Positions 3,518 through 46,700 of a stretch of 64,000 bases of DNA are shown here, piece by piece. The translations under genes and the position numbers were made by a program. This DNA comes from a virus. Location: IMG/VR virus record IMGVR_UViG_3300028394_000001, positions 106,521 to 170,520 of that record; one strand, 5' to 3'. Each line of letters opens with the position of its first letter. Within the stretch, counting starts at the first letter, position 1. Below the pieces are notes generated by a model, which had not been told where the DNA came from, did not search any database, and saw only the letters and a program-made list of their open reading frames with translations.

Positions 3518-4282
3518 ATGGCAAGCAATAGAAAAACAGCAATACAAAAACGTGATGATTCAATTGAAGGTGATGAGGTAACACACAGACACCAACCCGT
3601 TTCAAACTCACTAAAAATAAAATTAGACCATTTAAAAACATTTGAAGCACTAACACAAAATCAACAAAAGTTCTTTGACGCATACAAAACAGGTGATTAC
3701 TTTATTGGCCTATTAGGATCACCAGGTGTAGGTAAAACATTCTTAGCATTGTATCGTGCAATCGAAGAAGTATTAAACAAGGATAATCCTTTTACACATA
3801 TTGTAGTTGTTCGTTCCGCTGTACAGGTAAGAGACCAAGGTTTTGTTCCTGGTACATTGGATGAAAAGATGGAGATTTATGAAGTGCCTTACAAAGAAAT
3901 TTGTGAGACACTTTTTGGTCGTTCTGATGCATGGGAAAGATTAAAGGAACAAGGTTACGCTAGATTCATTTCAACTACCGCTATTCGTGGTATCTCTATT
4001 GACAACTCTATCATTATTGTAGATGAATGCCAGTCAATGACATTTCATGAATTGAGTTCGGTTATCTCCCGTGTTGGCCATCGTTCAAAGATTATATTTG
4101 TTGGTGACCTGAAACAGAATGACCTAATTAAGAGTAAACATGATATATCGGGCCTTGCTGAGTTTTTGAATGTTGCAAGACATATGGATGAGTTTACTGA
4201 AATTTTATTTACACCAAACGACATTGTTCGCAGCAGTTTGGTCAAATCATGGATTGTTGCCTGCGATAAATTAGGAATATAA
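3518..4282 (+). CDS. phoH: PhoH-like ATPase
   Basis: Walker A GSPGVGKT, GFVPGTLDEK, RGISIDN, Walker B IIVDECQ, GDLKQND, IVRS. Confidence 0.93.
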   Translation: MASNRKTAIQKRDDSIEGDEVTHRHQPVSNSLKIKLDHLKTFEALTQNQQKFFDAYKTGDYFIGLLGSPGVGKTFLALYRAIEEVLNKDNPFTHIVVVRSAVQVRDQGFVPGTLDEKMEIYEVPYKEICETLFGRSDAWERLKEQGYARFISTTAIRGISIDNSIIIVDECQSMTFHELSSVISRVGHRSKIIFVGDLKQNDLIKSKHDISGLAEFLNVARHMDEFTEILFTPNDIVRSSLVKSWIVACDKLGI

Positions 4283-4878
4283 TGATTGATGATGTGTTAT
4301 GTATTGAAGGTATCTTTGATGATCCGCAAGAAATTATAAATTTGGCGAAGAAACAAAGATACTATTCTTGTGAAGATAATCCTACAGTAAAAAATACAAA
4401 TATCAAGTATAGTGGTGAGAGAACCGACCATTTAGCCAACATATTGAGTGATGGTGAATACTATGAATTAACTAAGAAAATCATAAGTAAAATATTCAAA
4501 AATGTACCATCGTCAAATATAAAGGCTCAAATTATTTGTTTGTTTCACTATCTAACTGAAATGGACATACCGAACAGTTCTTGGATACACAAAGATACAT
4601 CATTGTATTCTGGTGTGATATATTTAAGTGAAGGTTTCAATGATAAATATAATAACCATGGTACCAAAATAATCATAGGCCGTGACGTTTTAAATTACCG
4701 CAATGAATTCAATAAGTTAATCCTATATCGTGGAGACTACTCACATTCGGCTAATTTTGGTTTTGGTCAAACTATAGATAATTCAAGACTAACATTAAAT
4801 TTCTTCATAAATGAAATAATGATTGATATGAAAAATGAAAATAAGGTAAAAGAGAAATACTATGATTACAAAACATGA
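4282..4878 (+). CDS. 2OG-Fe(II) oxygenase-like protein (DUF6445-like)
   Basis: WIHKD (HxD), YSGVIYL, GT, FNKLILYRG..HS, RLTLNFF: the usual DSBH dioxygenase pattern. Confidence 0.7.
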   Translation: MIDDVLCIEGIFDDPQEIINLAKKQRYYSCEDNPTVKNTNIKYSGERTDHLANILSDGEYYELTKKIISKIFKNVPSSNIKAQIICLFHYLTEMDIPNSSWIHKDTSLYSGVIYLSEGFNDKYNNHGTKIIIGRDVLNYRNEFNKLILYRGDYSHSANFGFGQTIDNSRLTLNFFINEIMIDMKNENKVKEKYYDYKT

Positions 4879-5446
4879 ATGGTGGTCAACACCTGTTTGG
4901 GAGATTGAAACAGGATTTGATGAATATTTTAATTTGTGTTTTAGAAATGAATTACTTGATTTGATTTGTGCAAGTGAACATAACAAATATGTCGATATTT
5001 GGACAGTAGATTCCGACTATTGCAGACAATTGAAGAATAAAATATATGAAATGATGGATTTAATTTTACCTGAATATTTTTCAAACTACCACGAATCAAA
5101 ACCCTTTATATCAAATGGATGGGTGAATCAGCAAAAACCAGGACAATCATTTCCACTACACAGTCATGGTGAAAGTGTGGTGGCTTGCGTGTATTATATA
5201 GAAACTTATGAGAATAGTGGTGACCTTCTGATAGTAGATCCAAGGGGTTCTGTTGTTTGGGATTTGAATGTTGAGAATGGTGTAAACTCAGTAAAATATA
5301 AAAGAATTACACCAAAGGCAGGTAAAATGGTCTTATTTCCATCGTATCTATTACATTCAGTTGAAGAAAATAAGTCAGAAAAAACAAGATTTGGCATTGC
5401 TACAAATATACATATTCCCACGAAACACTATATAAATGACAGATAA
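4862..5446 (+). CDS. putative 2OG-Fe(II) oxygenase (TIGR02466-like)
   Basis: W.N...G..FPLHSH, ACVYY, GDLLIVDPRG, G.MVLFPSYLLHSV, R..IA.N. Confidence 0.8.
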   Translation: MITKHEWWSTPVWEIETGFDEYFNLCFRNELLDLICASEHNKYVDIWTVDSDYCRQLKNKIYEMMDLILPEYFSNYHESKPFISNGWVNQQKPGQSFPLHSHGESVVACVYYIETYENSGDLLIVDPRGSVVWDLNVENGVNSVKYKRITPKAGKMVLFPSYLLHSVEENKSEKTRFGIATNIHIPTKHYINDR

Positions 5447-5449
5447 ATA
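5443..5449 (+). promoter_or_regulatory. T4-type late promoter-like motif (ATAAATA)
   Basis: ATAAATA lies 25 nt before the Cys-rich gene; the same motif precedes several structural genes in this window. Confidence 0.5.
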
Positions 5450-5473
5450 GACCATATCTTCGGAGAACAAAAA

Positions 5474-5875
5474 ATGACATTACCAAACACATCTCAAGGA
5501 ATATCTTTTCAAAATATAAGAGATGAAACGGGCCAACCTGCGGGTTTTTCCGCATCTATGCAATGGGTCAAGGACAACAGCAAACTCACAAAAGGCGGCG
5601 CCACTGGTGTTATTAATGACATGGGATCCCTACGCGATAAGGCATATTATAGAGATAATACTTCAGGCAATTGTAGTAATGGTAATTGTACATCTAATTG
5701 TAATTGCGGTAATAAAAATTGCAGTAATTGTATTATTACTGGCACCGTAAATTGTGCAAATTGCGATGCTTCGGCTTTTATCCAACCGAATTGTAATTGC
5801 AATTGTACATATAATTGTACCACTTCGTCAACATCTTTTAACTGTGATTGTTGGATCTGTGCTTGTACTTGGTAA
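5474..5875 (+). CDS. Asn-Cys-repeat Cys-rich protein; putative radical-SAM substrate / precursor
   Basis: GGAG SD. The last 69 aa contain 16 Cys, 13 of them as Asn-Cys, and the protein ends CWICACTW. It lies immediately upstream of the rSAM/SPASM gene. Confidence 0.75.
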   Translation: MTLPNTSQGISFQNIRDETGQPAGFSASMQWVKDNSKLTKGGATGVINDMGSLRDKAYYRDNTSGNCSNGNCTSNCNCGNKNCSNCIITGTVNCANCDASAFIQPNCNCNCTYNCTTSSTSFNCDCWICACTW

Positions 5876-5896
5876 TTTAATAAACTAGGAAAAAAT

Positions 5897-7381
5897 ATGA
5901 TTTTTGAAATTAATGCGGAGCGTAGTGCTTCAGACGTAAAGACTTTTTATTATGATAATGAAAAAAATATACTTTCAGATTCTACTGGATTTGTTTATGA
6001 GTATCCGGAACCACAGATTCCACAACCCGTAACAGGTACAGGCTTGGAGTTATTCCATAAATGTGAAGAGGTTAAACCCTTTGATAAAAATACTCCACTA
6101 AAAAAATCAAAAGATGTTACTGTCATTAAAATCCAATTAGGTTTATCATGCAACTACTCTTGTGATTACTGCTCACAAAGGTTTGTTGAAAGGCCACCAG
6201 AAACTAGTAAAAAGGATATTGAATCTTTCATCTCTAAGTTGGATAATCTAAACATTACAGAAAAAGCTGGACTAAGAGTTGAATTTTGGGGTGGTGAACC
6301 ACTTGTCTATTGGAAAACATTAAAACCTCTCGCTGAAACAATTGCTGAGAAATTTTCTCATTGGAAAAAGAAACCATCTTTTGGCATGGTGACTAATGGA
6401 TCACTATTGACAAGAGAAATATGTTCTTGGTTATATTATATGGGTTTTGGTGTTGGTATTAGTCATGATGGTCCAGGTCAACATGCTCGTGGTCCTGATC
6501 CATTTGAAGATCCAGAAAAAAAGAAAATCATCTTAGAGTTTTATAAAGTAATGCATTCCCAAAATCGTATTAGTTTTAATTCTATGATGAATAGAAAGAA
6601 TACTAGCCGCAAACAAATCCATGATTGGTTTGTTAATTTAACAGGTGATCCTACTGTTCCAATTGGTGAGGGTGGTTTTATTGATGCATATGATGAAGCC
6701 GCTATCAATAGTTCATTAGAAACAAAACAAGAACATTTTGAATACCGAAGAAATGCATTTAATGATATTTATAGTACAGATAATACAGATGAACAAATTA
6801 ATTTTGGTATTATTAATGACAAAACAGACATGTTTGTTCGTGGTGTTTTGAATCACACTGAATCTAAATTTGTTGGTCAAAAATGCGGAATGGACAACGA
6901 AGGAACAATTTCTGTAGACCTCAAAGGTAACATCACAACTTGCCAAAATGTTTCTATAATGGAAACCAGTAAAAACGGTGAGTCACACTTAGGTGGTAAC
7001 TTAGATGATTACGAAAATGTTGAACTGAAATCTGTTACTCATTGGATGAACCGAGCAGGTTGTAAGGATTGTCCTGTGTTGCATTTATGTAAAGGTTCTT
7101 GTATGTACCTTGACGGTAAATTTTGGGATATAACTTGCAATAATGCTTATAGTGATAATGTTGTTTTCTTTGCTTTAGCTCTGGAAAGAATTACAAATGG
7201 TTACATACCAACTAAAATTAAAGGTGATGGATTAGCTTTAGAAAGACAAGACATTTGGGGAACACTATATGAACACAAAGAAGTTGAAAAGAAAAAAATG
7301 ATACCAATTAAAATTATAGCAGAAAAAATTGGTATGTTAAATGATGTTGAAATTTACGGACAATCAAGAGTAGAGGCATAA
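5897..7381 (+). CDS. radical SAM / SPASM-domain enzyme (peptide or protein maturase type)
   Basis: CNYSCDYC (CxxxCxxC), FWGGEP, VTNGSLL, ISHDG. The C-terminal SPASM-type Cys pattern reads KCG...VDLKGNITTC...CKDCPVLHLCKGSC...C. Confidence 0.92.
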   Translation: MIFEINAERSASDVKTFYYDNEKNILSDSTGFVYEYPEPQIPQPVTGTGLELFHKCEEVKPFDKNTPLKKSKDVTVIKIQLGLSCNYSCDYCSQRFVERPPETSKKDIESFISKLDNLNITEKAGLRVEFWGGEPLVYWKTLKPLAETIAEKFSHWKKKPSFGMVTNGSLLTREICSWLYYMGFGVGISHDGPGQHARGPDPFEDPEKKKIILEFYKVMHSQNRISFNSMMNRKNTSRKQIHDWFVNLTGDPTVPIGEGGFIDAYDEAAINSSLETKQEHFEYRRNAFNDIYSTDNTDEQINFGIINDKTDMFVRGVLNHTESKFVGQKCGMDNEGTISVDLKGNITTCQNVSIMETSKNGESHLGGNLDDYENVELKSVTHWMNRAGCKDCPVLHLCKGSCMYLDGKFWDITCNNAYSDNVVFFALALERITNGYIPTKIKGDGLALERQDIWGTLYEHKEVEKKKMIPIKIIAEKIGMLNDVEIYGQSRVEA

Positions 7382-7382
7382 A

Positions 7383-8018
7383 ATGAAAGTTACAATCACA
7401 CAAGAATTGCAGAATTGCATTAACCTTTTAAATTCTATTCCTGCTGTAAAATCAGTTGCAGTATCTGAAGCTTCAGACATTATTAAATCACAAATTAAAA
7501 ATGTAGACTCTTTCGTATTCAGTTTAACTAACGAGATGGGTAATACAATTAAATATATTATTCCTAAAAATGCGATTATTCGTGCAACAACTCATCCAGT
7601 GGAAGATTTTATGGATATTGTTAATGTTATAACACAAAGACTACAATTCTTAGATGAAAATACGAATCCAGATTGGATTGAACCTTGTTATTATAATAAT
7701 ATCGAAACAACTAGAGTTGAAGTGGTCAGAGAAGATATAGCACCAATTGCCGCAAATACTGAATTGCAATTATTAGTGAATAGTTTGGAGGATCTACCTG
7801 GACTATTTAATGTTAATGTTTATTCATTAACATCAGGCAATGCCGATAGTGTATTTTTTACTTGTGATATTATTGAACATCCTCGAGGTGGAAAAATTAA
7901 TTTTGTGGTGCCTTTTAGTACATGCACAAATCTCGAAATGCATTCACAACTGATTGATAATGCAAATGAGTTATTCGAACAAGCAAAAACAGGAAATACA
8001 ACAACTAGTCAATCTTAA
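7383..8018 (+). CDS. hypothetical protein with internal two-fold domain repeat
   Basis: The halves align: ELQNCINLLNSIPAVKSV...DSFVF...IKYIIP versus ELQLLVNSLEDLPGLFNV...DSVFF...INFVVP. Confidence 0.75.
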   Translation: MKVTITQELQNCINLLNSIPAVKSVAVSEASDIIKSQIKNVDSFVFSLTNEMGNTIKYIIPKNAIIRATTHPVEDFMDIVNVITQRLQFLDENTNPDWIEPCYYNNIETTRVEVVREDIAPIAANTELQLLVNSLEDLPGLFNVNVYSLTSGNADSVFFTCDIIEHPRGGKINFVVPFSTCTNLEMHSQLIDNANELFEQAKTGNTTTSQS

Positions 8019-8024
8019 AATATT

Positions 8025-8681
8025 ATGAGAATCGAGAATATTTTTGGTTATAACATAACAAGAATACAATGTACAAATGAATCTCTCTATAGAGATAATG
8101 AAATAACCAAAACGGTTAACAATGTATTTAATTTTCCAAAAGTTCAAAGTAGAGATAGAACACTCAAGGGAGATTCTCATAAAGGTGCAGGTCTAACCAC
8201 GGTTAGTGAATCATACCTTTCTTTAGTAAATCTACCGGGTTTTGGTAATTTAACTGAATGGATTACACAGCAATTTTTATTGGCAAAAGAACCTTTGGGG
8301 CTTGACAATAAAGGAAATATCGTGTATTATAAGAGAAGTTGGGCAAATAGGTTATTTCGTGGCGGCCATGGATTATGCCATAATCACAATAAAGTGGATA
8401 ACTATATTGCGAGTCTTACGGATTATACAAATGAAAATTTTAGACCAGATGCTGTTGGTATTTTTTATCTTGATGTGCCGGAAGCTTCATCAAATTTAGT
8501 CATAGTTAAAGATGGCAAACCTGAGACTTGGATTGATGATTATGTAGAAGAAGATACTCATTGGATACAACCAATAGAAGGAGAGTTATTAATACACTCT
8601 CCTGATGTATATCATGCTGTGAGTGTTCATCACAATAATTTACCTCGTAATGTTTTTGTTTTTGATATTGAATATGTTTAA
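8025..8681 (+). CDS. putative 2OG-Fe(II) oxygenase
   Basis: SWAN...G.CHNH, GIFYL, EGELLIH...YHAV, RNVFVFD. Confidence 0.72.
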   Translation: MRIENIFGYNITRIQCTNESLYRDNEITKTVNNVFNFPKVQSRDRTLKGDSHKGAGLTTVSESYLSLVNLPGFGNLTEWITQQFLLAKEPLGLDNKGNIVYYKRSWANRLFRGGHGLCHNHNKVDNYIASLTDYTNENFRPDAVGIFYLDVPEASSNLVIVKDGKPETWIDDYVEEDTHWIQPIEGELLIHSPDVYHAVSVHHNNLPRNVFVFDIEYV

Positions 8682-9198
8682 AAAGAATCTTTTTGCAACA
8701 CCAATTTGGCAAAGAATATTGCCAATTGAATTGAACAATGGATTATTAGAAGAATCTACTCAATTTGATGGTAATATATTTGATATGAACCTAACATATA
8801 CAAATAAACTAAAAAACATTATTAGAGAATTATACATCAACATCAACTATGAATACATACTTGAAGAACGCACAATTCATGGTAGACTGAATATAATAAA
8901 TTATGGAGAAAATGATACACCACACAGTCACATAGGTAAATCACTTTTAGTTGGTGTCTATTATTTGGATGTTGAGATTGATACGGGTGACCTTTTGTTA
9001 CACGATCCCAGAGGTGGTGTTGTTTGGGATAATTTAGATTTTGAACCGAATGACCCTATAAAAGGAAAAACTTCCAGAACTTATCATAGAATTAAACCTG
9101 TAAACGGATTATTAATTATGTTTCCTGGATATTTGGTACATTCAGTAGAAAACAATATGAATAAAAAACCAAGAAAGTCGATAGTTATTAACATATGA
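8674..9198 (+). CDS. putative 2OG-Fe(II) oxygenase (TIGR02466-like)
   Basis: Likely start ATG 8674 (MFKKNLFATPIW). Motifs PHSH, VGVYY, GDLLLHDPRG, FPGYLVHSV, RKSIVIN. Paralogue of 4862..5446. Confidence 0.8.
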   Translation: MFKKNLFATPIWQRILPIELNNGLLEESTQFDGNIFDMNLTYTNKLKNIIRELYININYEYILEERTIHGRLNIINYGENDTPHSHIGKSLLVGVYYLDVEIDTGDLLLHDPRGGVVWDNLDFEPNDPIKGKTSRTYHRIKPVNGLLIMFPGYLVHSVENNMNKKPRKSIVINI

Positions 9199-10715
9199 AA
9201 TATACAATATTGGGTGGCGGAAGTGCTGGTTGGTTAACTGCATTGTTCATTAGAAAAATTTGTCCAGATGATGAGGTAACTGTCATTGCTAGCTCCGAAA
9301 TTGGAATTTTAGGTGCAGGTGAAGGCACTACACCTCAATTTCCTATGTTTCTTAAAAAGATTGATATATCGGTTCATGATATAATTAAAAACGCTAAAGG
9401 AACATTTAAGAATGGAATTAAATTTACTAATTGGAATGGAGATGGTGAACATTACTATCATAACTTTCAAGATTCATTAGTAAATTTCGAAGATTACAAA
9501 CACATTGATGTTAATCCCTATGCTTTAAATAACATTTCAAACCATGAAAATTTAGATAGCTTGAATTTTACTCCACTCATATCTGAAAAAAATAAAGTAA
9601 AATATATAAAATCTAATGATAAAGAATGTGGATCGGATGCGTTACATTTTGATGCAAATTTATTAGCCAAATATTTTCAAACTGTTGGTTTAGAAAGAAA
9701 TATTAAACTTGTTGATGATGAAGTTATTTCTGTTGATTCAAAGGACAATAAGATTGTTGGATTTAATTTAAAATCAAATAATAAGATAGATACGGATTTT
9801 GTTTTTGATTGTTCTGGTTTTAAAAGATTTCTAATTGGTGGCCACTACAAAGGTAAATGGAATTCTTATAATGACCATTTACCAATGAAACGAGCGATGC
9901 CTTTCTTTGTTCAGAACGACACTAAAGAGATTCCACCATACACAGAAAGTATTGCTATGAAGTATGGTTGGGTTTGGAAGATTCCGGTACAAGGTCGATT
10001 TGGTTGTGGTTATGTGTTTGATTCGGATTTGGTGTCTGATGAAGAAATCAAAAAAGAGTTGGAGGAATATTTTGGACATGAAATTATAAGTCCAAGAACA
10101 TTCACTTTTAATCCAGGTTGTTTTGAAGAGGTGTGTATAGGTAACTGTATTGCTATTGGTTTATCAGCCGCTTTTATTGAACCACTTGAAGCGACAAGCA
10201 TATGGGTTACCATTATGCAATTGACTGAATTTGAAGCGAATAAAAACAAAATCTTAAACGACTCTGGTGATTCTATTGAATCATATAATCAAACTATTAA
10301 GGCAATAAACAGAGACATTTTAAACTTTATACAATTACACTATTTAACTAATCGTAATGATAGTGTTTTTTGGAATACTTTTAAAGTAAAAAACAAGGTA
10401 TTACCGCAAATAGAAGGTCTTAAAGAATTGTGTCAAGATAAAATTCCAGAATCTCACAATTTAAAATACCTTACATTAACAGAAAATATTAACATAGGTT
10501 GTTCGCGTAGTAACCATCGGGGTATTTTTTCCGAAACAAGTTGGCATCAAGTTGGTGCCGGCATAAAATTCTTTAAAGAAGATATTGCAAGAAAAGTTTT
10601 GGATACTGAATATCCAAATTTTAAAAATGAGGTTATATTTCAGGACTTTTTTGAAAAAAATAGTGAACTGTTATATGACCATTACGATTACATAGAGAAA
10701 TTAAAAAATGTTTAA
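9195..10715 (+). CDS. flavin-dependent tryptophan halogenase-like protein (PrnA/RebH family)
   Basis: GGGSAGW FAD motif, GAGEGT, K.GIKF..W, HFDA, DCSGF, GWVWKIP (WxWxIP), AIGLSAAFIEPLEATSI. Confidence 0.9.
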   Translation: MKYTILGGGSAGWLTALFIRKICPDDEVTVIASSEIGILGAGEGTTPQFPMFLKKIDISVHDIIKNAKGTFKNGIKFTNWNGDGEHYYHNFQDSLVNFEDYKHIDVNPYALNNISNHENLDSLNFTPLISEKNKVKYIKSNDKECGSDALHFDANLLAKYFQTVGLERNIKLVDDEVISVDSKDNKIVGFNLKSNNKIDTDFVFDCSGFKRFLIGGHYKGKWNSYNDHLPMKRAMPFFVQNDTKEIPPYTESIAMKYGWVWKIPVQGRFGCGYVFDSDLVSDEEIKKELEEYFGHEIISPRTFTFNPGCFEEVCIGNCIAIGLSAAFIEPLEATSIWVTIMQLTEFEANKNKILNDSGDSIESYNQTIKAINRDILNFIQLHYLTNRNDSVFWNTFKVKNKVLPQIEGLKELCQDKIPESHNLKYLTLTENINIGCSRSNHRGIFSETSWHQVGAGIKFFKEDIARKVLDTEYPNFKNEVIFQDFFEKNSELLYDHYDYIEKLKNV

Positions 10716-11373
10716 CTATTGCGCTGTACCTACACTAAAAGATATTAAGGCTGAGACTTTCCCAGATGGCCGATACTATGTAATGGAAGACGGTGCAAGA
10801 TTGCCGTCAATTACGACTGTACTGGGTGCTTTAAGTAAGGCTGACATACTTGCATGGCGTAAGCGTGTTGGTTATGAAGAAGCCAATAAAATCTCACGCA
10901 AAGCATCTGGTCGTGGTACCAATATGCATAGCATCTGTGAAGCATATCTAAACAACAATATAGAGTATTCAAAGAAGGCTATGCCTGATGCATTGGAAAT
11001 GTTCAAGAGCCTCAAACCAATTATAGATGCAAATGTGTCTGATATTTGGTACCAAGAATGTGCATTGTTTTCCAAAAAACTTGGTGTTGCAGGTCGTGTT
11101 GACTTGATTGCACATTGGGACGGAAAACTATCTATCATTGATTTCAAGACCAGTAGCAGGATTAAAACCAGAGATAAGGTTATGTCCTATTTTTGGCAAG
11201 AAACTGCATATGCATTGATGTTAGAAGAAATGATTGATATACCTGTTGACCAGATTGTTACCGTTATGGCAGTAGATGGTTCTGAACCATTGGTGTTCAT
11301 TGAAAAGACTCAAGACCATATCGATGGACTAGTAAAAGCCATACAATTCTATAAAGATTCTTTGGTGGCTTGA
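10708..11373 (+). CDS. PD-(D/E)XK exonuclease (T4-like, Cas4-like)
   Basis: PSITTVL, WRKRVG.EEA, RGT.MH...E, AGRVDLI, IIDFKTS, Q..AYA. Confidence 0.87.
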   Translation: MFNYCAVPTLKDIKAETFPDGRYYVMEDGARLPSITTVLGALSKADILAWRKRVGYEEANKISRKASGRGTNMHSICEAYLNNNIEYSKKAMPDALEMFKSLKPIIDANVSDIWYQECALFSKKLGVAGRVDLIAHWDGKLSIIDFKTSSRIKTRDKVMSYFWQETAYALMLEEMIDIPVDQIVTVMAVDGSEPLVFIEKTQDHIDGLVKAIQFYKDSLVA

Positions 11374-11503: not shown

Positions 11504-11597
11504 AACACTATAGAAGATTAGATAATATCAAATCTCAGGGCTGGTACACCAGATTACTCTAGGGAAACCTAAAAGTGCAGATAGACCGTATAGTGTT
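11504..11597 (+). ncRNA. candidate structured ncRNA 2 (unknown family)
   Basis: A perfect 9-bp closing stem AACACTATA/TATAGTGTT encloses hairpins AGATTAGAT-AAT-ATCAAATCT, CTGG-TACA-CCAG and TAGG-GAAA-CCTA (GNRA loop). A U-tract follows. Confidence 0.55.
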
Positions 11598-11601
11598 TTT
11601 T

Positions 11602-11915
11602 ATTGCTGTATGAAGCAAAGAGAAAAGTGTTCTGGACGGGGGTGCGAATCCCCCCAGGTCCACCATAAGGATTGTAATGAAAGAAAAAATATTAACTGCT
11701 ATTGAAATGATTGCAGAGTTCCTAAAAGGAATAGCACAATCTTTATGATGGGCCTGCATAGTTTCGACAGGGCAAAGAGTAACAGAGTGGACAGCACGGT
11801 AGGCGATGACCGTTAATCAAGCAAAAAACGTAAATGCAAACGACTCCGCATATCGCCTAGCTGCTTAAGCTAAGCTGAGGTTTCGCCGACTGTCCTTATT
11901 ATCCAATCAGTCGGC
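11602..11915 (+). ncRNA. ssrA: circularly permuted (two-piece) tmRNA
   Basis: The acceptor piece has a T-arm and ends CAGGTCC-A-CCA (11655-11665). It precedes the coding piece, which starts GGGCCTG (11750) and continues ...TTTCGACAGG. The acceptor stem has the G3.U pair. The tag ORF at 11836-11868 reads ANDSAYRLAA*. A 3' hairpin lies at 11885-11915. The outer ends are approximate. Confidence 0.9.
11677..11748 (+). CDS. possible 23-aa amphipathic peptide in the tmRNA intervening segment
   Basis: TAAGGA SD right after the CCA end; MKEKILTAIEMIAEFLKGIAQSL* ends 1 nt before the tmRNA 5' G. Confidence 0.4.
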   Translation: MKEKILTAIEMIAEFLKGIAQSL

Positions 11916-11941
11916 AATTTGTTCAACAAAAGGAGAAAATT

Positions 11942-12385
11942 TTGATTAAAAAACTCGTACTTATCGCATCCCTTATGGGTGTATTTGCAAGCGCACAGGC
12001 TTTAGAAGTTGGTATCAATGATGGTACTAATCTTAGCTCAACGCAAAATGTTTGGGGTGTTACAGTAGGTGAAACTGTGAAAGGTTATAACTTAACCGCA
12101 GGCTTCAATCGTTCTACAACTGCCGACTCTTATAGTTTGGTAAATGCTGTAGAGGTAGCAAAATTTGGACCTGTATCACTTGATGCTAAATTTGGTGCTG
12201 TCTTTGTTGACAGTCAATCAGGTTCAGCTTATGATGGTTATGCCGCTACGGTTGGTGTCGGTGCTCGTATGCCTATCACTAAATCAGTTTCAGCAGGCCT
12301 TGATTACAGTTACCAAGCTGGTCAAGACCGTGTTGTTGCAGAAAACGGTAGCCGTATCACTGCTGGCGTTAAATTTAGTTTCTAA
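11942..12385 (+). CDS. outer-membrane beta-barrel protein (small OmpA-TM/Ail/Lom-like)
   Basis: AAGGAG SD with TTG start; Sec signal peptide ending AQA; alternating beta strands; C-terminal AGVKFSF (terminal Phe, BAM signal). Confidence 0.78.
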   Translation: MIKKLVLIASLMGVFASAQALEVGINDGTNLSSTQNVWGVTVGETVKGYNLTAGFNRSTTADSYSLVNAVEVAKFGPVSLDAKFGAVFVDSQSGSAYDGYAATVGVGARMPITKSVSAGLDYSYQAGQDRVVAENGSRITAGVKFSF

Positions 12386-15538: not shown

Positions 15539-17314
15539 TGCCATCGCAATAGGTGGTCCACTAAATCTACGATTAGCTTTAAGTATTGCTACTAGAGTTT
15601 CATTTGTTGTTCGGACAGGAGTTGACACAGCAAAATCAATGCCGCCGGTGCCAGTTTTTACAACATTCTTACTTGCATCAATTATAGTAGGCTTTGTACT
15701 TCCACCACTATCATTTAAATTTAAACTAGCATAAAGATTTTGATTTTGTAAAAAACTTTGAGCCGCTCTACTGGCTGCCGGCATTGTTGGAGAAAAACTA
15801 CTTTTACCACTTTGATTTGGTACTAAGTTTAAGTCTGTTCCAGCAGGTTTATCTACACTTCTTAGAGGCATACTTTCACCAATAGGAGGTGGAAGACCTA
15901 CTGTACCACTGGCCGACCCAAACTCGCGGGTTGCTGTTGTCGCACCACCACTAGAATTAGATGTACCTATTGTTGATGTACGAGAACCACTCCTATCAAC
16001 TGCGACAGCTGTAGAACCTGGTGATTGTGCAGTTACTGGTCTCACAGAAACTGATGATGTATCTGGTTGGCTTGACATTTGATTTGCCTCTGCGCCGCCC
16101 GGAGCAATCTGAACCTGTGTCGGATCAGGTGGTCCTGCATTAGTAATGACCGGTACAGGCGCCGGTGGTGCAACATATTTTGGACTTCTTGGATTTGTGT
16201 TAGGAACAACTAAATTTTCACCTACACCACCAGAAAGAATAACCAATTTTCCAGCTCTATTTGTAACTTCACCTTGAAATTGAGCCCTTTGATTACCCTG
16301 CGTTCTCGCTAACCAATCTGTCACTTGTTGTAAATTTTGAACAGATAACTCTTGCTTTTTTTCTGCTTCAGTAAAAAGAGGATTAGTCATTATTGATTCG
16401 ACTAAATCTCTAGGTTTTTGTTTTCCTATTTTTTGAGCGTTTAATGCTCCAGCTTCAGTATTATTGGAAGCTTCACCCCTCTGAATCATTGCGTATGGAT
16501 CACTTAAATACTCCGCTTTGTAAGGATTAATCCTTACAGCGGCTTGACGTTCTTCAACTTCTCTTGTTGTTACCACTACTGCGCCAATGGCTGCTGCACC
16601 TAAAAAAGTTAAAGGATTTGCTAAAGCTAATGATGCAATACTTCGCAAGGTGCTCAAGTCTTTACCCATGGCAATCGATTTTATCATCGTTTTCAAAAAT
16701 TTTAATAAAGGTTTTAGTTTTAGAAATACCGCGGCCAACATTTTTTTGACTATTTCAATTATTCTTTCCAGGAATCCTTTACCTTTATCTTGTTTAGTTG
16801 CAGTACCTCCACCTAAATGACCAAGTGCATCAATCAATTCTTTATGTCTTAATTCTCTTTCAAATTCTCGTTCTTCTTCAAAATTTGCAGTAATTTCATT
16901 CTGCTTCTTTTCATCCAATATTTGTTTTTTTAACAAATTGAAAATACGAGCCATAATGGTAGAAAGACCTTCACCTCTCCTTACTGGCCTGTTTTCGCCG
17001 TCAGATACTTTTGAAATTAATGGATTGTTTTTAATTGCTGTTATAGCCGAATTTCTTTTGCCGGTAAAGTAATCAATGTCTTCCTGACTTCTGCCTGCAA
17101 TTTTACCATAAGCATATGCACCTAATCTTCCTCCAATTGCTCTAGAGATATTCATTGGATCAAATTTCTCTTTGAGGCCTGTTAGTTTGGCTTTAGTCTT
17201 ATCTTTTATTGAACTGGAAATAGATTTACCAAAACCTTGGCCATCTAAAGTTCTATCGATAATTAGAGTTTTGAGGCTTTGATTTCTTATTCCTCTTGCT
17301 GATCTGTAGTCCAT
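15536..17314 (-). CDS. putative tail/baseplate-hub-associated protein (tape-measure-associated)
   Basis: 592 aa with a helical N-half and a Ser/Thr/Pro-rich C-half. Shares the RxGxG...RHKELxxAL motif with the upstream ORF. Confidence 0.6.
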   Translation of the reverse strand: MDYRSARGIRNQSLKTLIIDRTLDGQGFGKSISSSIKDKTKAKLTGLKEKFDPMNISRAIGGRLGAYAYGKIAGRSQEDIDYFTGKRNSAITAIKNNPLISKVSDGENRPVRRGEGLSTIMARIFNLLKKQILDEKKQNEITANFEEEREFERELRHKELIDALGHLGGGTATKQDKGKGFLERIIEIVKKMLAAVFLKLKPLLKFLKTMIKSIAMGKDLSTLRSIASLALANPLTFLGAAAIGAVVVTTREVEERQAAVRINPYKAEYLSDPYAMIQRGEASNNTEAGALNAQKIGKQKPRDLVESIMTNPLFTEAEKKQELSVQNLQQVTDWLARTQGNQRAQFQGEVTNRAGKLVILSGGVGENLVVPNTNPRSPKYVAPPAPVPVITNAGPPDPTQVQIAPGGAEANQMSSQPDTSSVSVRPVTAQSPGSTAVAVDRSGSRTSTIGTSNSSGGATTATREFGSASGTVGLPPPIGESMPLRSVDKPAGTDLNLVPNQSGKSSFSPTMPAASRAAQSFLQNQNLYASLNLNDSGGSTKPTIIDASKNVVKTGTGGIDFAVSTPVRTTNETLVAILKANRRFSGPPIAMA

Positions 17315-17329
17315 TTTTATTCTCTTTGG

Positions 17330-20266
17330 TTAAGCATACGCATAGTATACATTGTGGTCAGGATCGGTTGGTATTGAAATGGTTTCTCTCTTGTTTGATC
17401 CTATTATAGTTGTACTATTATTTACAAAGATAATAGATGCCATATTTTTACTTTTCTTCATCGATGAATTTAACGATGACATTTGATTTAAAGCCAAACC
17501 ATCTAAAATATTTTCCGAATTTAAACTAGAACTTCTGCGTGGTGTTTGTTGTATTATTATTTTATCTTTTCTATCTTTTGTTTCTTGTTCAGATAAATCT
17601 TTTAATGTTTGTAAAGGAATAAGTTTTCTTGATAAATATCCCAATTCATTTTTATATTCACCTATAGTTTTTGGAAAATTTTCATCATTATTCTTATAAA
17701 CAAGGTAATGGTTTGCTCTAATTTCAGCAGGTGTAAGAAAGTCTTTTAAAAGCTTATCATCTTCACCTTCATCAAATGCTTTTTTTATTGCCTTAGCATA
17801 AGTTATTCCGTTAAAGTGAGCCAGTCTTAGAGTTAATTCGGAAATGCTGGATCCTAAATTTTTAGCATTTTCAATCGTATGTTCATTCATCAACAATTCT
17901 TGGACATCTTCAGAATATACTGTGTCCATGTAATTTGGTCCTAAAACATCTCTAGCTCTAAATAAAAGTGTATCTGGCATGAATTGATATTTACCCATGG
18001 CTGAGCCAGCACCTTTTGCATTGAAGTATCTACTTCTACTTTTTTGTAGTTCATTAACTTCTCGTATTGTCATGTCAGTTAAGTCTTTTTCAAAATTAAC
18101 TCTTTTTTCCCAAACCAATTTTCCTTTAGGATATTTTTTATAATTATCAGGATCTGTTCTTTTATCAAATGTTATTAATTTTAATTTTGAACCAGGATCA
18201 CTTATGTCACCCTCACCTTTTTTAATTATACTTGTAAGAATAGGTTCTTGGGAATTTTCATTAGACCACACAAAACGGTCTTTTGAAGCTTGATTTGCAC
18301 CTAAATATTCATCGGGAACTTTAGCGGATTCACCTCTTGAGATATTGGCTTTTGCTGCTTTTAATACATCTGAAGACTGTTCTTCAACTCTAGGAACAGG
18401 CACTGCGGTTTGTTCTCTTGGTGGAATTGGTGTAACAGTAACAGGTCTCGCTGGTTGAGGCCTTGGTGCTACCGGCGCAGGTTCAGGAACAGGTTGCGCT
18501 GTTACTGGTTGACCATGACGATTCTTTAATGACTCATCATTGGATGCACTTCTTTCAGCTATTTTTTGTTCTTCTTGGCGTTTTCTTTCAGCTGCAGCTT
18601 CAGTGACTTGACGCCTCCTCTCAATTTCAGCCTCACGAGCAGCTTCAAAATCTTGGCGTCTTCTCTCAGCCAAAGCCGCCGCTTCATCATCTTTACGTTT
18701 TTTCTCAGTTTCAGCTGCTATACGAGCTTTTTCAGCTTCAATAGCTGCAGTTTCTTCTCTCTGTCTTCTATCATCATCTTCTTTTTGTTTTCTTCTTCGA
18801 GCAACCTCAGCTGCATTTTGTTCCGTTTGTTGCCTTTGATTGTCTTCTCTTTGCTTTCTTTCCGTTTCTTCCCTCTGTCTTTTTTCATCATCTTGACGTT
18901 TTTTGTCAGCTTCTTCTTTTTGTTTTATTTCTTGTAAACGACGAGCTTCAGCTTTTGCAGATTCAGCTGCAGCTTGTTCTCTTTGTTGCCTTATTTGATT
19001 TTCTGCGGCCGCACGTTTTTCTTCTTCTGCTCGAGCAGCATCACTCTCTCTTTCTTTTTGTCTACTTTCAGACTTAGCTTTTTCTCTGTTTCTTTCATCT
19101 TCAGCGGCTTTTTCTTCTTTCAACTTTCTTTCTTGTCTTGCTTTATCTTCTATTTCCCTTTGTCGTTCAGCTTCAGCGTTGGTTCTTTGTATTCTTCTTT
19201 CTTCAACAATAGCCTCCGATTTAGCATCAGCTTCATTTTTTAGCCTTAATCTATCAGCTTCTCTTTGTTTTTCTTCTTGTTCAGCTCGTCTTCTTTCAAC
19301 ATCTTCTCTTGCTTTTTTTTCTTTTTCTTGTTCAGCTTTTAAACGTATCCTTTCTTCAAACGCTGCGCTTTGTCTTTCCAATTCATCTTGTTCTTTTTGT
19401 GCTTGTTCTCTGTTAGGTGGTGTTGGAGAAGGTGCTGGTGGCGGTGCTGGAGGAGGTGTTGGAGTTGTTTGAGCAGCTGCGGCACCAGCCATACCAAGTG
19501 CAGCTGCACCTAAACCTAATGCAAGTATTAACTCTTTTGCACCTTTAGAAACAATATCATCATCTTTTTCATTTGATTTAACATTTTTATTTCCACCAGT
19601 ATGGCTTAATGCCTCCATCAATTCTTTATGTCTTCTTTTTTCATTCTCTAGCTTGGTGTCACCAAAGTTTTCCTTTAAATCTTTGATTAATTTTTTTTCT
19701 GCTATATCATTTTTTAGAATAGAATAGATTTTAGCAGCCACGGTGGCTGGGCCATCACCCTTACGCAGTTTAGGCCTTGTAGATAATCCAACCTTAGTAT
19801 ATAACTCTGCATTAACTTTAGATGTTATTGATTTAGCTGTATTTGTTTTATTACCCAAAAACATCTTATTCATTCTTTTGGGAGCAAACTTCTTAGCTAT
19901 TTTGTTAGATTTATTAGACATTGGTCCTATGTTTGGACCTTCATTGTCTTGTTCATCGTCCTGTTCTTCAGGTTTTTCTTTTTTTACATAACGACCAGTT
20001 TTTGGATCACGAGCACGACCTTGTTCAGCAAGAATCTTTTGAATTAAGGGAACAAGTATATGCTCTCTATAACCAGGTTGTTTAGATAATTCCAGTTGCC
20101 TTTTCTTTAGCTCACTCTTTGACATTTTTTTACCGAGGTCAACAAGTTGGTCTACCTGTTTTTTAGACAAATTTCCAACACTCAACAATTCGTTGATTTT
20201 ATTTTCGTTGAACATCTGCTCAAATTCTCCCGATTTAAGCATACTGTCGAAGACTTTTTGTTCCAT
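17330..20266 (-). CDS. tape-measure-like / hub protein with lysozyme-like domain
   Basis: About 300 aa of E/R/K/Q/A-rich helix flanked by Pro-rich linkers. C-terminal ES...SAMGKYQFMPDTL...Q..L...LAHFNG is a lysozyme/lytic-transglycosylase-like pattern. Located downstream of gp26/gp51. Confidence 0.6.
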   Translation of the reverse strand: MEQKVFDSMLKSGEFEQMFNENKINELLSVGNLSKKQVDQLVDLGKKMSKSELKKRQLELSKQPGYREHILVPLIQKILAEQGRARDPKTGRYVKKEKPEEQDDEQDNEGPNIGPMSNKSNKIAKKFAPKRMNKMFLGNKTNTAKSITSKVNAELYTKVGLSTRPKLRKGDGPATVAAKIYSILKNDIAEKKLIKDLKENFGDTKLENEKRRHKELMEALSHTGGNKNVKSNEKDDDIVSKGAKELILALGLGAAALGMAGAAAAQTTPTPPPAPPPAPSPTPPNREQAQKEQDELERQSAAFEERIRLKAEQEKEKKAREDVERRRAEQEEKQREADRLRLKNEADAKSEAIVEERRIQRTNAEAERQREIEDKARQERKLKEEKAAEDERNREKAKSESRQKERESDAARAEEEKRAAAENQIRQQREQAAAESAKAEARRLQEIKQKEEADKKRQDDEKRQREETERKQREDNQRQQTEQNAAEVARRRKQKEDDDRRQREETAAIEAEKARIAAETEKKRKDDEAAALAERRRQDFEAAREAEIERRRQVTEAAAERKRQEEQKIAERSASNDESLKNRHGQPVTAQPVPEPAPVAPRPQPARPVTVTPIPPREQTAVPVPRVEEQSSDVLKAAKANISRGESAKVPDEYLGANQASKDRFVWSNENSQEPILTSIIKKGEGDISDPGSKLKLITFDKRTDPDNYKKYPKGKLVWEKRVNFEKDLTDMTIREVNELQKSRSRYFNAKGAGSAMGKYQFMPDTLLFRARDVLGPNYMDTVYSEDVQELLMNEHTIENAKNLGSSISELTLRLAHFNGITYAKAIKKAFDEGEDDKLLKDFLTPAEIRANHYLVYKNNDENFPKTIGEYKNELGYLSRKLIPLQTLKDLSEQETKDRKDKIIIQQTPRRSSSLNSENILDGLALNQMSSLNSSMKKSKNMASIIFVNNSTTIIGSNKRETISIPTDPDHNVYYAYA

Positions 20267-43721: not shown

Positions 43722-46700
43722 ATGGCAAATACAGTTAATATTTTAGGCTACGCCAACACATTTGGTGATTGGATCGTTGCAACTAATGCAGGTTCCAATG
43801 AAATCAATTCTATTGGTAAATACGATTGGACCAAAGATTCTGGCACATTGACTTTAAATGGTACAGGTACTGCTTTAACTGTTGCTAATAATGTCATTGT
43901 TGCAGGTCAATTACTGGTTACAGGTACAGCTTCTTCAGCAACTATCGACAATAATTTAACTGTAGGTAAACAAGTATATTTTACAAACACTACACAAAGC
44001 TTGGTTGCAAGTGGTTCTGTTACTGCAAATGGTACAGTTTATGCTAGCAATACAGGAACAAGTTTAGCCGTTGCAAACAATACTACAATTGGAGGTTCTT
44101 TAACGGTAGGTGGTGTAACATTAATCTCAAATACATTAACTGTTACTAAATCAACAGTTCTTCAAAATACTTTGAGTGTTGGTAAAGACACAATAATTAC
44201 AGGTAATTTAAATGCAACATTAGAAACTTATACTAACTTATTAGTATCTAATACGGCTATCAGAGCAGCAGTTTTATCAGTTCTTGGTACCACTTATACT
44301 AACACACTTCAGGCCAATACAAACATTTTAACTGGGGTAATTCAATCTAACACTTCAGTAAATACCGCAACACTATCTGTAACAGGCACATCCTTTACAG
44401 ATAAACTACAATCTAACACCGCAGTTAATACTGCCACAATATCCGTTACTGGTGCAAGTTTTACCAATACTTTACAAGCTAACACCGCCGTAAATACAGC
44501 CACGTCTTCAGTAACAGGCGCAAGTTTTACCAATACTTTACAAGCTAACACCGCTGTAAATACAGCCACACTATCTGTTACCAATATTTCATATACCGAT
44601 AAACTACAAGCTAATGCCGTTGTAAATACTGCGACTTCTTCGGTGACAGGTATTTCTTACACAGATAAGTTACAATCTAATACAGCAGTTAATACTGCCA
44701 CAATATCCGTTACTGGTGCAAGTTTTACTAACACACTTCAATCTAATACGGCAGTTAATACTGCGACTTCTTCAGTGACTGGTATTTCTCATACTGATAG
44801 ATTACAAGCTAATAGTTCAGTTAATACGGCTACAATATCTGTTACTAATATTTCTCACACAGATAGATTACAGGCTAATAGTTCAGTAAATACCGCAACA
44901 CTATCTGTTACCAATATTTCTCATATCGATAAAGTGCAAGCTAATAGCGTTGTAAATACAGCCACATTATCTGTTACCAACATTGCTTATACTGATAAGT
45001 TACAAGCTAATAGTGTTGTAAATACCGCCACACTATCGGTCACAGGTGTTTCGTATACTAACACACTTCAGGCCAATACGAATGTTTTAACTGGAGTAAT
45101 TCAGTCTAATACTGCTGTTAATACGGCTACAATATCTGTTACTAATATTTCTCATACAGATAGATTACAGGCTAATAGTTCAGTTAATACTGCTATTTTA
45201 TCTGTTACCAATATTTCTCATATCGATAAAGTACAAGCTAATAGCGTTGTTAATACAGCCACATTATCGGTTACCAATATTTCGTTTACAGATAAGTTAC
45301 AGGCTAATAGCGTTGTAAATACAGCCACATTATCTGTTACTAACATTGCTTATACCGATAAGTTACAAGCTAATAGCGTTGTAAATACAGCCACATTATC
45401 CGTGGTTGGCAATACTTGGACTAATAGAGTTCAAGCTAATGCTTCCGTAAATACAGCCACATTATCCGTGGTTGGCAATACTTGGACTAATGCATTACAA
45501 GCTAACGCGACAGTTAATACGGTTACAATGTCTGTGGTTGGCACTAGTTACACAGGATATTTGCAATCTAATAATACTGTAAACACTACTACAATTTCAG
45601 CAACAGGAAATACATATACTAGTTATCTTATTGCAAATAATGATATTTCTGTATCTAAACTGTATGTTACGAGTACACTTCTTTCGGCAACAAATGCTGT
45701 AGGTGCATTCCAATCTCTAACAACATCGGCCGGTTTGACTGTTGGTGGTACGTTTACAATTAACGGAACAACAGTTTATACAACAAATAATTTTGTAATA
45801 AACGCAAACACTTATACACCAATCACAAGTTATTTTAGTGTTAATAGGGGTACTGCAAATAATCAACCCACTGGTATTCCAAATGCAAATGCATCCATTC
45901 GTTGGAACGAATCAAACAAATATTGGGATATTTTAGATTCAAATAATGGCATTTACTATTCGCAAATTATGACTGCGAATATGATTTCTGATAGTGCAAC
46001 ATCTACAAGTATTTCAACTGTTCCAACAAGTAAAATTTCAACCGCAATTTATGCTCATGCGAACGCGGCCTTTGAGCAAGCTAATGTAGCAATACCAGCT
46101 AGCTCGTATGCTAACTCAGCTTACCTGCAAGCTAATTCAGCCTATGTGTCACAGAATACAACCGGTCAATATGCTAACTCGGCCTATGGTGTATCCAATT
46201 CAGCTAGTTCGTATGCTAATTCAGCTTACCGTGGCGCAAATTCAGCCAGTTCGTATGCTAATTCAGCATTTATTACTGCTAACAATGCTTTAGCTAATGT
46301 TGGTTCCATGGTTACGTCTAATAGCAGTACCATGTATACTTTTGCCAACAATTCGGCATCCACTTCGAATGTCACAGGTTCCGTTGTTATTGCGGGCGGC
46401 CTTGGTGTAGGTGGTAGTGTATACACTGGCAATGTTGTGATTAGAGGTTCTGGTAATGGTATTACCTTTGTTGATGGTTCGGTTCAATTCACAGCAGGTT
46501 CACCTGCAGCATCTGTATATGCTAATGCCGGTTTTGCACAGGCTAATACAGGTACTCTAAATGCAGCGTCAGCCAGTTCATACGCTAATGGTGCATTCTT
46601 AGTAGCTAATACAGGTACTTTAAATGCTGCAGCAGGAAGTTCATATGCCAACTCAGCTTATGGTGTAGCTAATAATGCATTGGCTAATACTGGCACATCA

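Follow-up and report, generated by a model that had tools for sequence, protein, structure and literature searches.

What would a T4-like phage do with a radical S-adenosylmethionine enzyme, a Trp halogenase and four oxygenases encoded side by side? The question arises from a 64,000-nucleotide stretch of viral DNA (positions 106,521 to 170,520 of IMG/VR record IMGVR_UViG_3300028394_000001; hereafter the window), the final 64 kb of a complete record, 170.5 kb long and bounded by terminal repeats, of a T4-like virus. Between phoH (3518-4282) and an exonuclease gene (10708-11373), eight intact open reading frames (ORFs) on the + strand (4282-10715) follow each other with overlaps or gaps of 1-27 nt. 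They encode four double-stranded beta-helix (DSBH) oxygenases, a protein rich in Asn-Cys dipeptides (the NC protein), a radical S-adenosylmethionine/SPASM enzyme (rSAM), a 211-residue protein and the halogenase. An earlier note made from the DNA letters alone had described this tight, co-directional arrangement correctly and had taken it for a complete pathway tailoring a substrate akin to RiPPs (peptides made by the ribosome and modified after translation). In our view, the cassette likely matures a fibre-tip protein of the virion, which would involve late expression, core cross-linking, Trp halogenation, oxidation and docking onto the tip. The features referred to below are as follows.

4282-4878, + strand: DSBH oxygenase 1; HKD103...H...R, DUF6445-like; accessory; 5' of the late promoter at 5443
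4862-5446, + strand: DSBH oxygenase 2; HxH...H...R, PF13759/TIGR02466-like
5443-5450, + strand: T4-type late-promoter motif GATAAATA, 31 nt 5' of the NC start codon
5474-5875, + strand: NC protein, 133 residues, with an Asn-Cys core in its C-terminal half
5474-5659, + strand: NC residues 1-62, folded N-terminal module, predicted fibre-tip docking domain
5666-5875, + strand: NC residues 65-133, Asn-Cys core with 16 Cys, six N/DxxC motifs and the terminal Trp133; predicted substrate of rSAM and halogenase
5897-7381, + strand: radical SAM/SPASM enzyme, 494 residues; CxxxCxxC at 85/89/92 and seven SPASM Cys
7383-8018, + strand: 211-residue accessory protein with a tandem alpha/beta domain of about 105 residues; candidate substrate-binding scaffold or chaperone
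8025-8681, + strand: DSBH oxygenase 3; HNH...H...R, below the Pfam cut-off
8674-9198, + strand: DSBH oxygenase 4 (from ATG; longest ORF from GTG at 8623); HSH...H...R, PF13759
9195-10715, + strand: flavin-dependent Trp halogenase; motifs GxGxxG, catalytic Lys, WxWxIP and EPLE; W133 as predicted target
43722-48893, + strand: S74-chaperone tail fibre, 1723 residues, autocleavage expected to follow residue 1625 (at 48596); possible partner for docking in trans

At the centre of the block stands the NC protein. It contains no Cys before residue 67 and 16 within residues 65-133, as counted earlier, 13 of them preceded by Asn; Trp occurs at positions 31, 127 and 133. When the core was shuffled 100,000 times, NC dipeptides numbered 3.5 on average and 10 at most, compared with 13 in the real sequence. 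These shuffles and 119 homologue clusters rule out an artefact or chance origin, and the whole family comprises more than 450 clusters. In the homologue alignment, the Asn preceding the core Cys residues is mostly 75-100% conserved, with Asp as the commonest tolerated substitute.

The most constant companion of this protein is the rSAM. Viral loci were collected both by NC alignment (80) and by rSAM (82), taking the best-scoring ones without dereplication. Among the former, 79 carry the rSAM gene and the remaining locus ends 156 nt past the NC gene; among the latter, an NC gene lies within 1.5 kb in 78, while three are truncated and one lacks it. Hence, the co-occurrence across phages that the earlier note had proposed as a check was borne out, the rSAM homologues nearly always adjoining a Cys-rich ORF. 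Moreover, rSAM and NC distances are correlated (Spearman 0.46), and this value is unchanged when the exonuclease is controlled for (partial r 0.46), whereas NC versus exonuclease distances give 0.08. Because of this near-obligate pairing and co-divergence, the NC protein is supported, on sequence grounds, as the cognate substrate of the rSAM.

The site of action of the modified product is suggested by its relatives. Among loci of bacterial genomes, mostly in Burkholderiales prophage regions, that have sufficient flanking sequence, 61 of 62 show an ORF ending in (xC)n before the rSAM gene, and of ten such prophage ORFs compared with PHROG, eight match tail-fibre families. In these prophages, as in cultured phages, NC tails lie at the end of tail fibres 180-620 residues long. 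Phage JWF, for example, encodes the fibre gp028, with NC repeats and a Hint domain at its end, and phage RSP15 the side tail fibre gp048, each just 5' of the rSAM gene and within the tail module. Furthermore, an S74-chaperone tail fibre gene lies directly 5' of the NC gene in 20 loci, which corresponds to the gp37-gp38 order. The motif ATAAATA is found 5' of the NC gene in 71 of 105 loci, compared with 1/133 oxygenase, 1/31 halogenase, 0/20 phoH and 0/50 exonuclease genes, and in this genome it also precedes neck, sheath, tube, capsid and baseplate genes (names assigned from sequence and gene order). Enrichment is confined to this relaxed motif, the strict consensus TATAAATA showing none, and scans for sigma-70 promoters and terminators remained at chance level. 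Finally, some NC homologues continue at their C-terminus into an S74 domain, a Hint domain or an unnamed domain that begins with 'KIIC'. S74 and Hint domains are self-cleaving. In view of the prophage and cultured-phage fibres, the gene order with S74 fibres, the N-terminal homology described below, the late motif and the S74/Hint fusions, the NC protein is probably a virion fibre-tip protein and not a RiPP precursor. The earlier supposition that the product is not a secreted peptide is thus probably right, even though a role at the fibre tip had not been identified.

The 'KIIC' domain itself (about 170 residues; carried by the NC protein of L012, 2328-3227, and by those of about 70 other loci) has no Pfam or PHROG match. 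It occupies the position that S74 or Hint takes in other homologues and may therefore be a third self-cleaving domain.

The N-terminal half, which had been read as a leader, instead resembles a folded module of the fibre-docking type. AlphaFold2 models residues 1-62 with a predicted local distance difference test (pLDDT) value of about 80, and a profile of these residues, searched against 1.84 billion proteins, retrieved many matches in which polyglycine/GP38-like, fibrinogen-C or LamG payloads replace the NC core. GP38-like Pfam matches on the proteins found in this way stay below cut-off (E 0.006-0.008), Gly_rich_2 payloads occur too, and profile links with E 1.6e-5 and 5e-6 lead to proteins with sub-threshold GP38 matches. 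The NC protein as a whole gave no informative match in Pfam, NCBIfam, PHROG, PDB sequences, Foldseek PDB, VIA or cultured phages, where the structural negatives carry no information on the fold, half of the model being of low confidence; the ESM Atlas returned unnamed viral clusters only. No second protein with an NC-type N-terminal module was found in this genome. At two loci (L003, 6876-7979; L004, 311-1405), and only there among the NC homologues, a polyglycine insert of about 230 residues interrupts the module, which gives a gp38-like/NC hybrid.

Docking was also modelled. A complex of three fibre tips with NC residues 1-62 scored 0.50 compared with 0.30 for the best control, which lends weak support. 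Of 80 solved complexes 58 attain this mark, as do 2 of 110 mismatches; the range up to 0.60, however, holds just 7 of the solved complexes along with the two mismatches. Contact agreement between runs, for which alignments of our own were used, was at least 95% and partner pLDDT at least 61. Since a like complex (gp37-gp38) has already been solved, the score may reflect memory, and the model adds little on its own.

Several points weigh against a fibre-tip protein matured by the rSAM. Here the cassette sits among phoH/exonuclease genes, 33 kb away from the single S74 fibre of this genome (43722-48893), to which the NC gene is not adjacent. Fusions to S74 suggest a trimeric protein, in contrast to the monomeric gp38. 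The link to gp38 consists of remote profile matches, and Foldseek comparison of the module with Gp38-domain models gave weak matches (E 1.1 and 2.1). Lastly, the rSAM locus L002 has full flanks but no NC gene, on a contig that is 12% complete.

Which chemistry could the rSAM perform on the core? The gene is intact, as had been stated, passing the PF04055 and TIGR04085 SPASM cut-offs and encoding the CxxxCxxC motif as C85/C89/C92; the family counts at least 2,507 clusters at E < 1e-60 among 8,000 scored. Its SPASM region has seven invariant Cys (330, 349, 389, 392, 398, 402, 414) and lacks the extra Cys of anSME, as do CteB and CrpC, and in CrpC the absent residue leaves an iron site for a substrate Cys (PMC13692751). 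Formation of thioethers is therefore plausible. On the other hand, the enzyme falls far below the cut-off of every NCBIfam thioether-maturase equivalog (PapB 78 versus 340 bits, SCIFF 45 versus 425). PapB (E 8e-22) and CteB (5WGG, E 2e-13) are its best family matches, the top PDB match being 8VPO, and the residues close to the active site (S93, W131, T166, S189, Q350, N351) stand where CteB has F/F/T/S/H/Q. Because these residues differ from those of CteB, the comparison does not fix the type of bond formed.

The neighbouring 211-residue protein (7383-8018) is a candidate chaperone or scaffold for substrate binding. In its family the start codon almost always lies 0-4 nt after the rSAM stop, and the model (pLDDT 89) shows the tandem domain listed above. 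It has no sequence family match and no structural match above Z 5.9, for which reason it could not be called a RiPP recognition element (RRE), protease or chaperone; sequence profiles of PqqD/RRE matched neither this protein nor the rSAM N-terminus. A possible counterpart is a conserved protein of about 275 residues whose gene separates those of the (NC)n fibre and of the rSAM in prophages (L171, 5128-5955, and 55 further loci) and, as gp047, in RSP15. The cassette at L092 (13928-16871) contains two halogenases, and that at L253 (6492-10120) a radical SAM gene on either side of an S74-fused NC gene.

The halogenase was correctly named in the earlier note, matching PF04820 with E 1.6e-92 and possessing every catalytic motif. 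Its distribution was compared with the end of the substrate in 72 dereplicated loci, in which a Trp just before the S74 cleavage site was counted as the predicted mature end. A halogenase accompanies 21 of 22 predicted Trp-ended substrates and 2 of 50 with other ends, and a motif-complete one none of the 50. The two apparent counter-examples (L148, 10409-11620; L154, 10495-11682) are distant flavoproteins in the halogenase position, next to substrates ending in Cys; with 22-25% identity and without halogenase motifs, they were ruled out as such. In additional look-ups, a halogenase occurred with two free Trp-ending proteins and was absent with a Cys-ending one and with one S74-fused Trp-ending one. 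The enzymes form a single clade, with identities as low as 42%, and none of them occurs in the absence of a terminal Trp. A perfect correlation is contradicted by the S74-fused Trp-ending lineage at L089 and L251/L252, which lacks the halogenase; thus, as judged from these loci, the halogenase implies a terminal Trp but not the converse. Many independent co-gains can likewise be rejected, the rSAM tree offering only one or two independent contrasts, so that the link is suggestive and not significant.

The earlier expectation that both Trp residues of the CWICACTW tail are halogenated was not upheld. W133 is conserved in 55% of the homologues and W127 in 24%, and the halogenase tracks the terminal residue. 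W133 is also favoured since known halogenases prefer a C-terminal Trp: in peptides, chlorination by Trp halogenases takes place at the C-terminal Trp only (PMC9775415), and SrpI brominates a C-terminal Trp (PMC12615548). At L089, a phage contig, both subunits (alpha and beta) of a Rieske ring-hydroxylating dioxygenase are encoded together with TctC (15918-18562) a few kb after the halogenase-free, Trp-ending NC cassette. In the cultured marine phages HTVC008M (L248) and P-SSM2 (L249), the halogenase genes have as neighbours genes for 2-oxoglutarate (2OG) oxygenases and for neck/tail or fibre assembly, with no NC-linked rSAM, and these halogenases may act on other virion proteins.

The earlier assignment of four 2OG-Fe(II) oxygenases stands only as far as four DSBH genes are concerned. 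Two of them pass the PF13759 cut-off, 8025-8681 stays below it and 4282-4878 has merely a weak DUF6445 match; none passes TIGR02466 or matches PF05118. The HxD/E...H triad with a 2OG-binding Arg is present in 4282-4878 only, while the other three display HxH...H...R, as in uncharacterised PF13759/TIGR02466 proteins. Asn hydroxylation, which had been suggested as their role, is unsupported for these three, which lack the carboxylate ligand, and is a guess for the set, because three of four have this site and resemble uncharacterised structures only.

These oxygenases also enter into the strongest alternative, in which the NC protein is indeed a fibre-tip adhesin but the rSAM forms C-C cross-links, causes epimerisation or alters the backbone at Cys/Asn, or in which the Cys residues stay free to bind metal, with the oxygenases acting on Cys. 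Besides the low maturase scores, the top match to 8VPO instead of CteB and the unlike proximal residues, this is favoured by the 3-His-type site of three oxygenases, which we take to recall that of thiol dioxygenases. Yet a SPASM domain with seven Cys and an open site conforms to the pattern of thioether enzymes, and the strict conservation of Asn before Cys matches the chemistry of NxxcB. Such a scheme is therefore unlikely, though worth keeping in mind.

A second alternative questions the unity of the cassette: only NC and rSAM would form a system, and the oxygenases and halogenase would be unrelated auxiliary metabolic genes in a phoH-exonuclease hot spot. In related loci, profile searches revealed between zero and four oxygenases per cassette in varying order, oxygenase 1 being present in only a few, and other cassettes carry a PF05118 Asp/Asn hydroxylase, a B12-dependent rSAM or an Asn-synthase-like protein (one representative of each was tested). 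Only NC and rSAM are constant, and the eight genes can no longer be regarded as one fixed pathway. Moreover, cyanophages and pelagiphages in which the NC-linked rSAM found no match commonly carry halogenases and oxygenases of this kind, and oxygenases 1 and 2 precede the late promoter. The accessory genes, although variable extras, nevertheless accompany NC and rSAM into unrelated backbones and tail modules. In addition, 2OG genes lie within the cassette region of 58 loci (57 of them bacterial), a whole-genome search found no second rSAM, halogenase or related oxygenase gene elsewhere in the 170.5 kb, and the halogenase clade keeps to substrates with a terminal Trp. The block has a GC content of 32% compared with 37% for the genome. 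Unrelated auxiliary genes are hence an improbable explanation.

A true RiPP, whose N-terminal leader would be cut by a host or phage protease to give a cross-linked, halogenated peptide of about 70 residues acting in the cell or after lysis (as toxin, in superinfection exclusion or in anti-defence), suits the leader/core-like layout, the RiPP cluster-like variety of tailoring enzymes and the location outside the structural region, but is very unlikely given that the N-terminal half folds and is common to adhesin-like proteins, that NC tails end long tail fibres elsewhere, that a late promoter motif precedes the gene, that Pfam- and NCBIfam-type profile searches matched no protease or exporter family among the eight genes, as noted before, and that the self-cleaving domains of homologues are C-terminal and would leave the N-terminal half attached.

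Returning to the maturation of a fibre-tip protein, the genes, motifs, linkage, homology and promoter motif suggest the following course, which is a prediction in every chemical step as well as in virion location and function. The NC gene would be transcribed from its own T4-type promoter, late in infection if the motif and its enrichment are a guide to timing. The rSAM may then bind a substrate Cys at its open auxiliary-cluster site and, somewhat more probably than not, install several thioethers between Cys sulfur and the beta-carbon of Asn in the NxxC-rich core, and such stapling would create a rigid, reduction-proof domain. That the flavin halogenase, with a host flavin reductase, chlorinates or brominates the C-terminal W133 appears reasonably probable, while further oxidation of the core by the oxygenases is a more tentative proposal. 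The unprocessed N-terminal module could dock onto the long tail fibre (43722-48893) at its cleaved tip, in the manner of gp38 on gp37, as homology, gene order and the weak docking model hint. At the tip, the modified core might contact the host surface or protect the tip. No protease or exporter would be needed, since nothing is released.

By analogy, the cassette may do on a gp38-like carrier what CrpC/CrpA, known from Methanococcus voltae (PMC13692751), and QhpD/QhpC do. These systems have in common with it an rSAM/SPASM enzyme adjoining a Cys-rich protein with a Cys-free N-terminal part, an AuxI site left open in a SPASM domain of seven Cys, and, by prediction here, a modified protein instead of a released peptide as product. 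They differ in acting on archaeal or bacterial cellular proteins with C-X-X-Q/D motifs and in using an RRE, whereas here a predicted phage fibre-tip protein with Asn-Cys repeats is joined by a halogenase and oxygenases and no RRE was detected; the main text of PMC13692751 does not mention phages. The six N/DxxC motifs match the Cys-to-Asn beta-thioether pattern for which NxxcB provides the precedent (PMC9389541). In comparison with PapB/freyrasin, CteB/SCIFF and NxxcB/NxxcA, the present enzyme lies far below curated cut-offs and has other residues near the active site, and its substrate has many more Cys and probably stays on the virion. As no removable leader, protease or export gene was found and family cut-offs are missed, the cassette does not belong to the ranthipeptide class.

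With gp38 on gp37 (T2/T6/S16-type, PMC12032242), the NC protein shares its small size, a predicted N-terminal attachment module, a late-promoter motif and, in 20 loci, a gene position after an S74 fibre. It is not a classical gp38, however, for the polyglycine sandwich/beta-helix is replaced by an Asn-Cys core in need of a dedicated enzyme, some homologues bear S74, Hint or 'KIIC' domains at the C-terminus, and the gene lies far from the fibre here. The halogenase belongs to the same family as MibH and SrpI, which act on Trp in peptides, and VirX1, which is encoded by a phage, with all catalytic motifs, but its predicted substrate is a virion protein and no cognate flavin reductase is encoded in the cassette. 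To our knowledge, VirX1 has no known natural substrate.

Two further features lie just downstream. A two-piece (permuted) transfer-messenger RNA (tmRNA) occupies window positions 11573-11959, with the tag ANDSAYRLAA. Permuted tmRNAs are known from alpha-, some betaproteobacteria and cyanobacteria, and this one fits a Burkholderiales-type host. A 147-residue ORF (11942-12385), which starts like a signal peptide and ends in Phe, resembles a small outer-membrane beta-barrel.

In the literature, covered without most subscription papers, no description of this system or of such virion chemistry was found, and in one study a phage rSAM figures solely as an antibiotic gene (PMC12801897). Taken together, it is conceivable, though by no means assured, that many freshwater phages and Burkholderiales prophages build their receptor-binding tips by natural-product chemistry, with an rSAM stapling an Asn-Cys domain to which a swappable halogenase, oxygenases, a B12 methylase and lactam-forming enzymes add non-proteinogenic groups. 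The NC protein gives phage Trp halogenases and PF13759 oxygenases, which have long been classed as auxiliary metabolic genes without a known role, a concrete candidate substrate, and orphan phage halogenases and TIGR02466-like oxygenases would thereby gain natural substrates. An rSAM that staples many Cys-Asn pairs within a folded protein and a halogenase acting on the C-terminal Trp of a protein would be useful biocatalysts. If this interpretation is right, receptor-binding proteins would bear enzyme-made cross-links and halogens, a layer that host prediction from sequence or structure ignores, and phages would diversify their host range by enzyme cassettes besides sequence.

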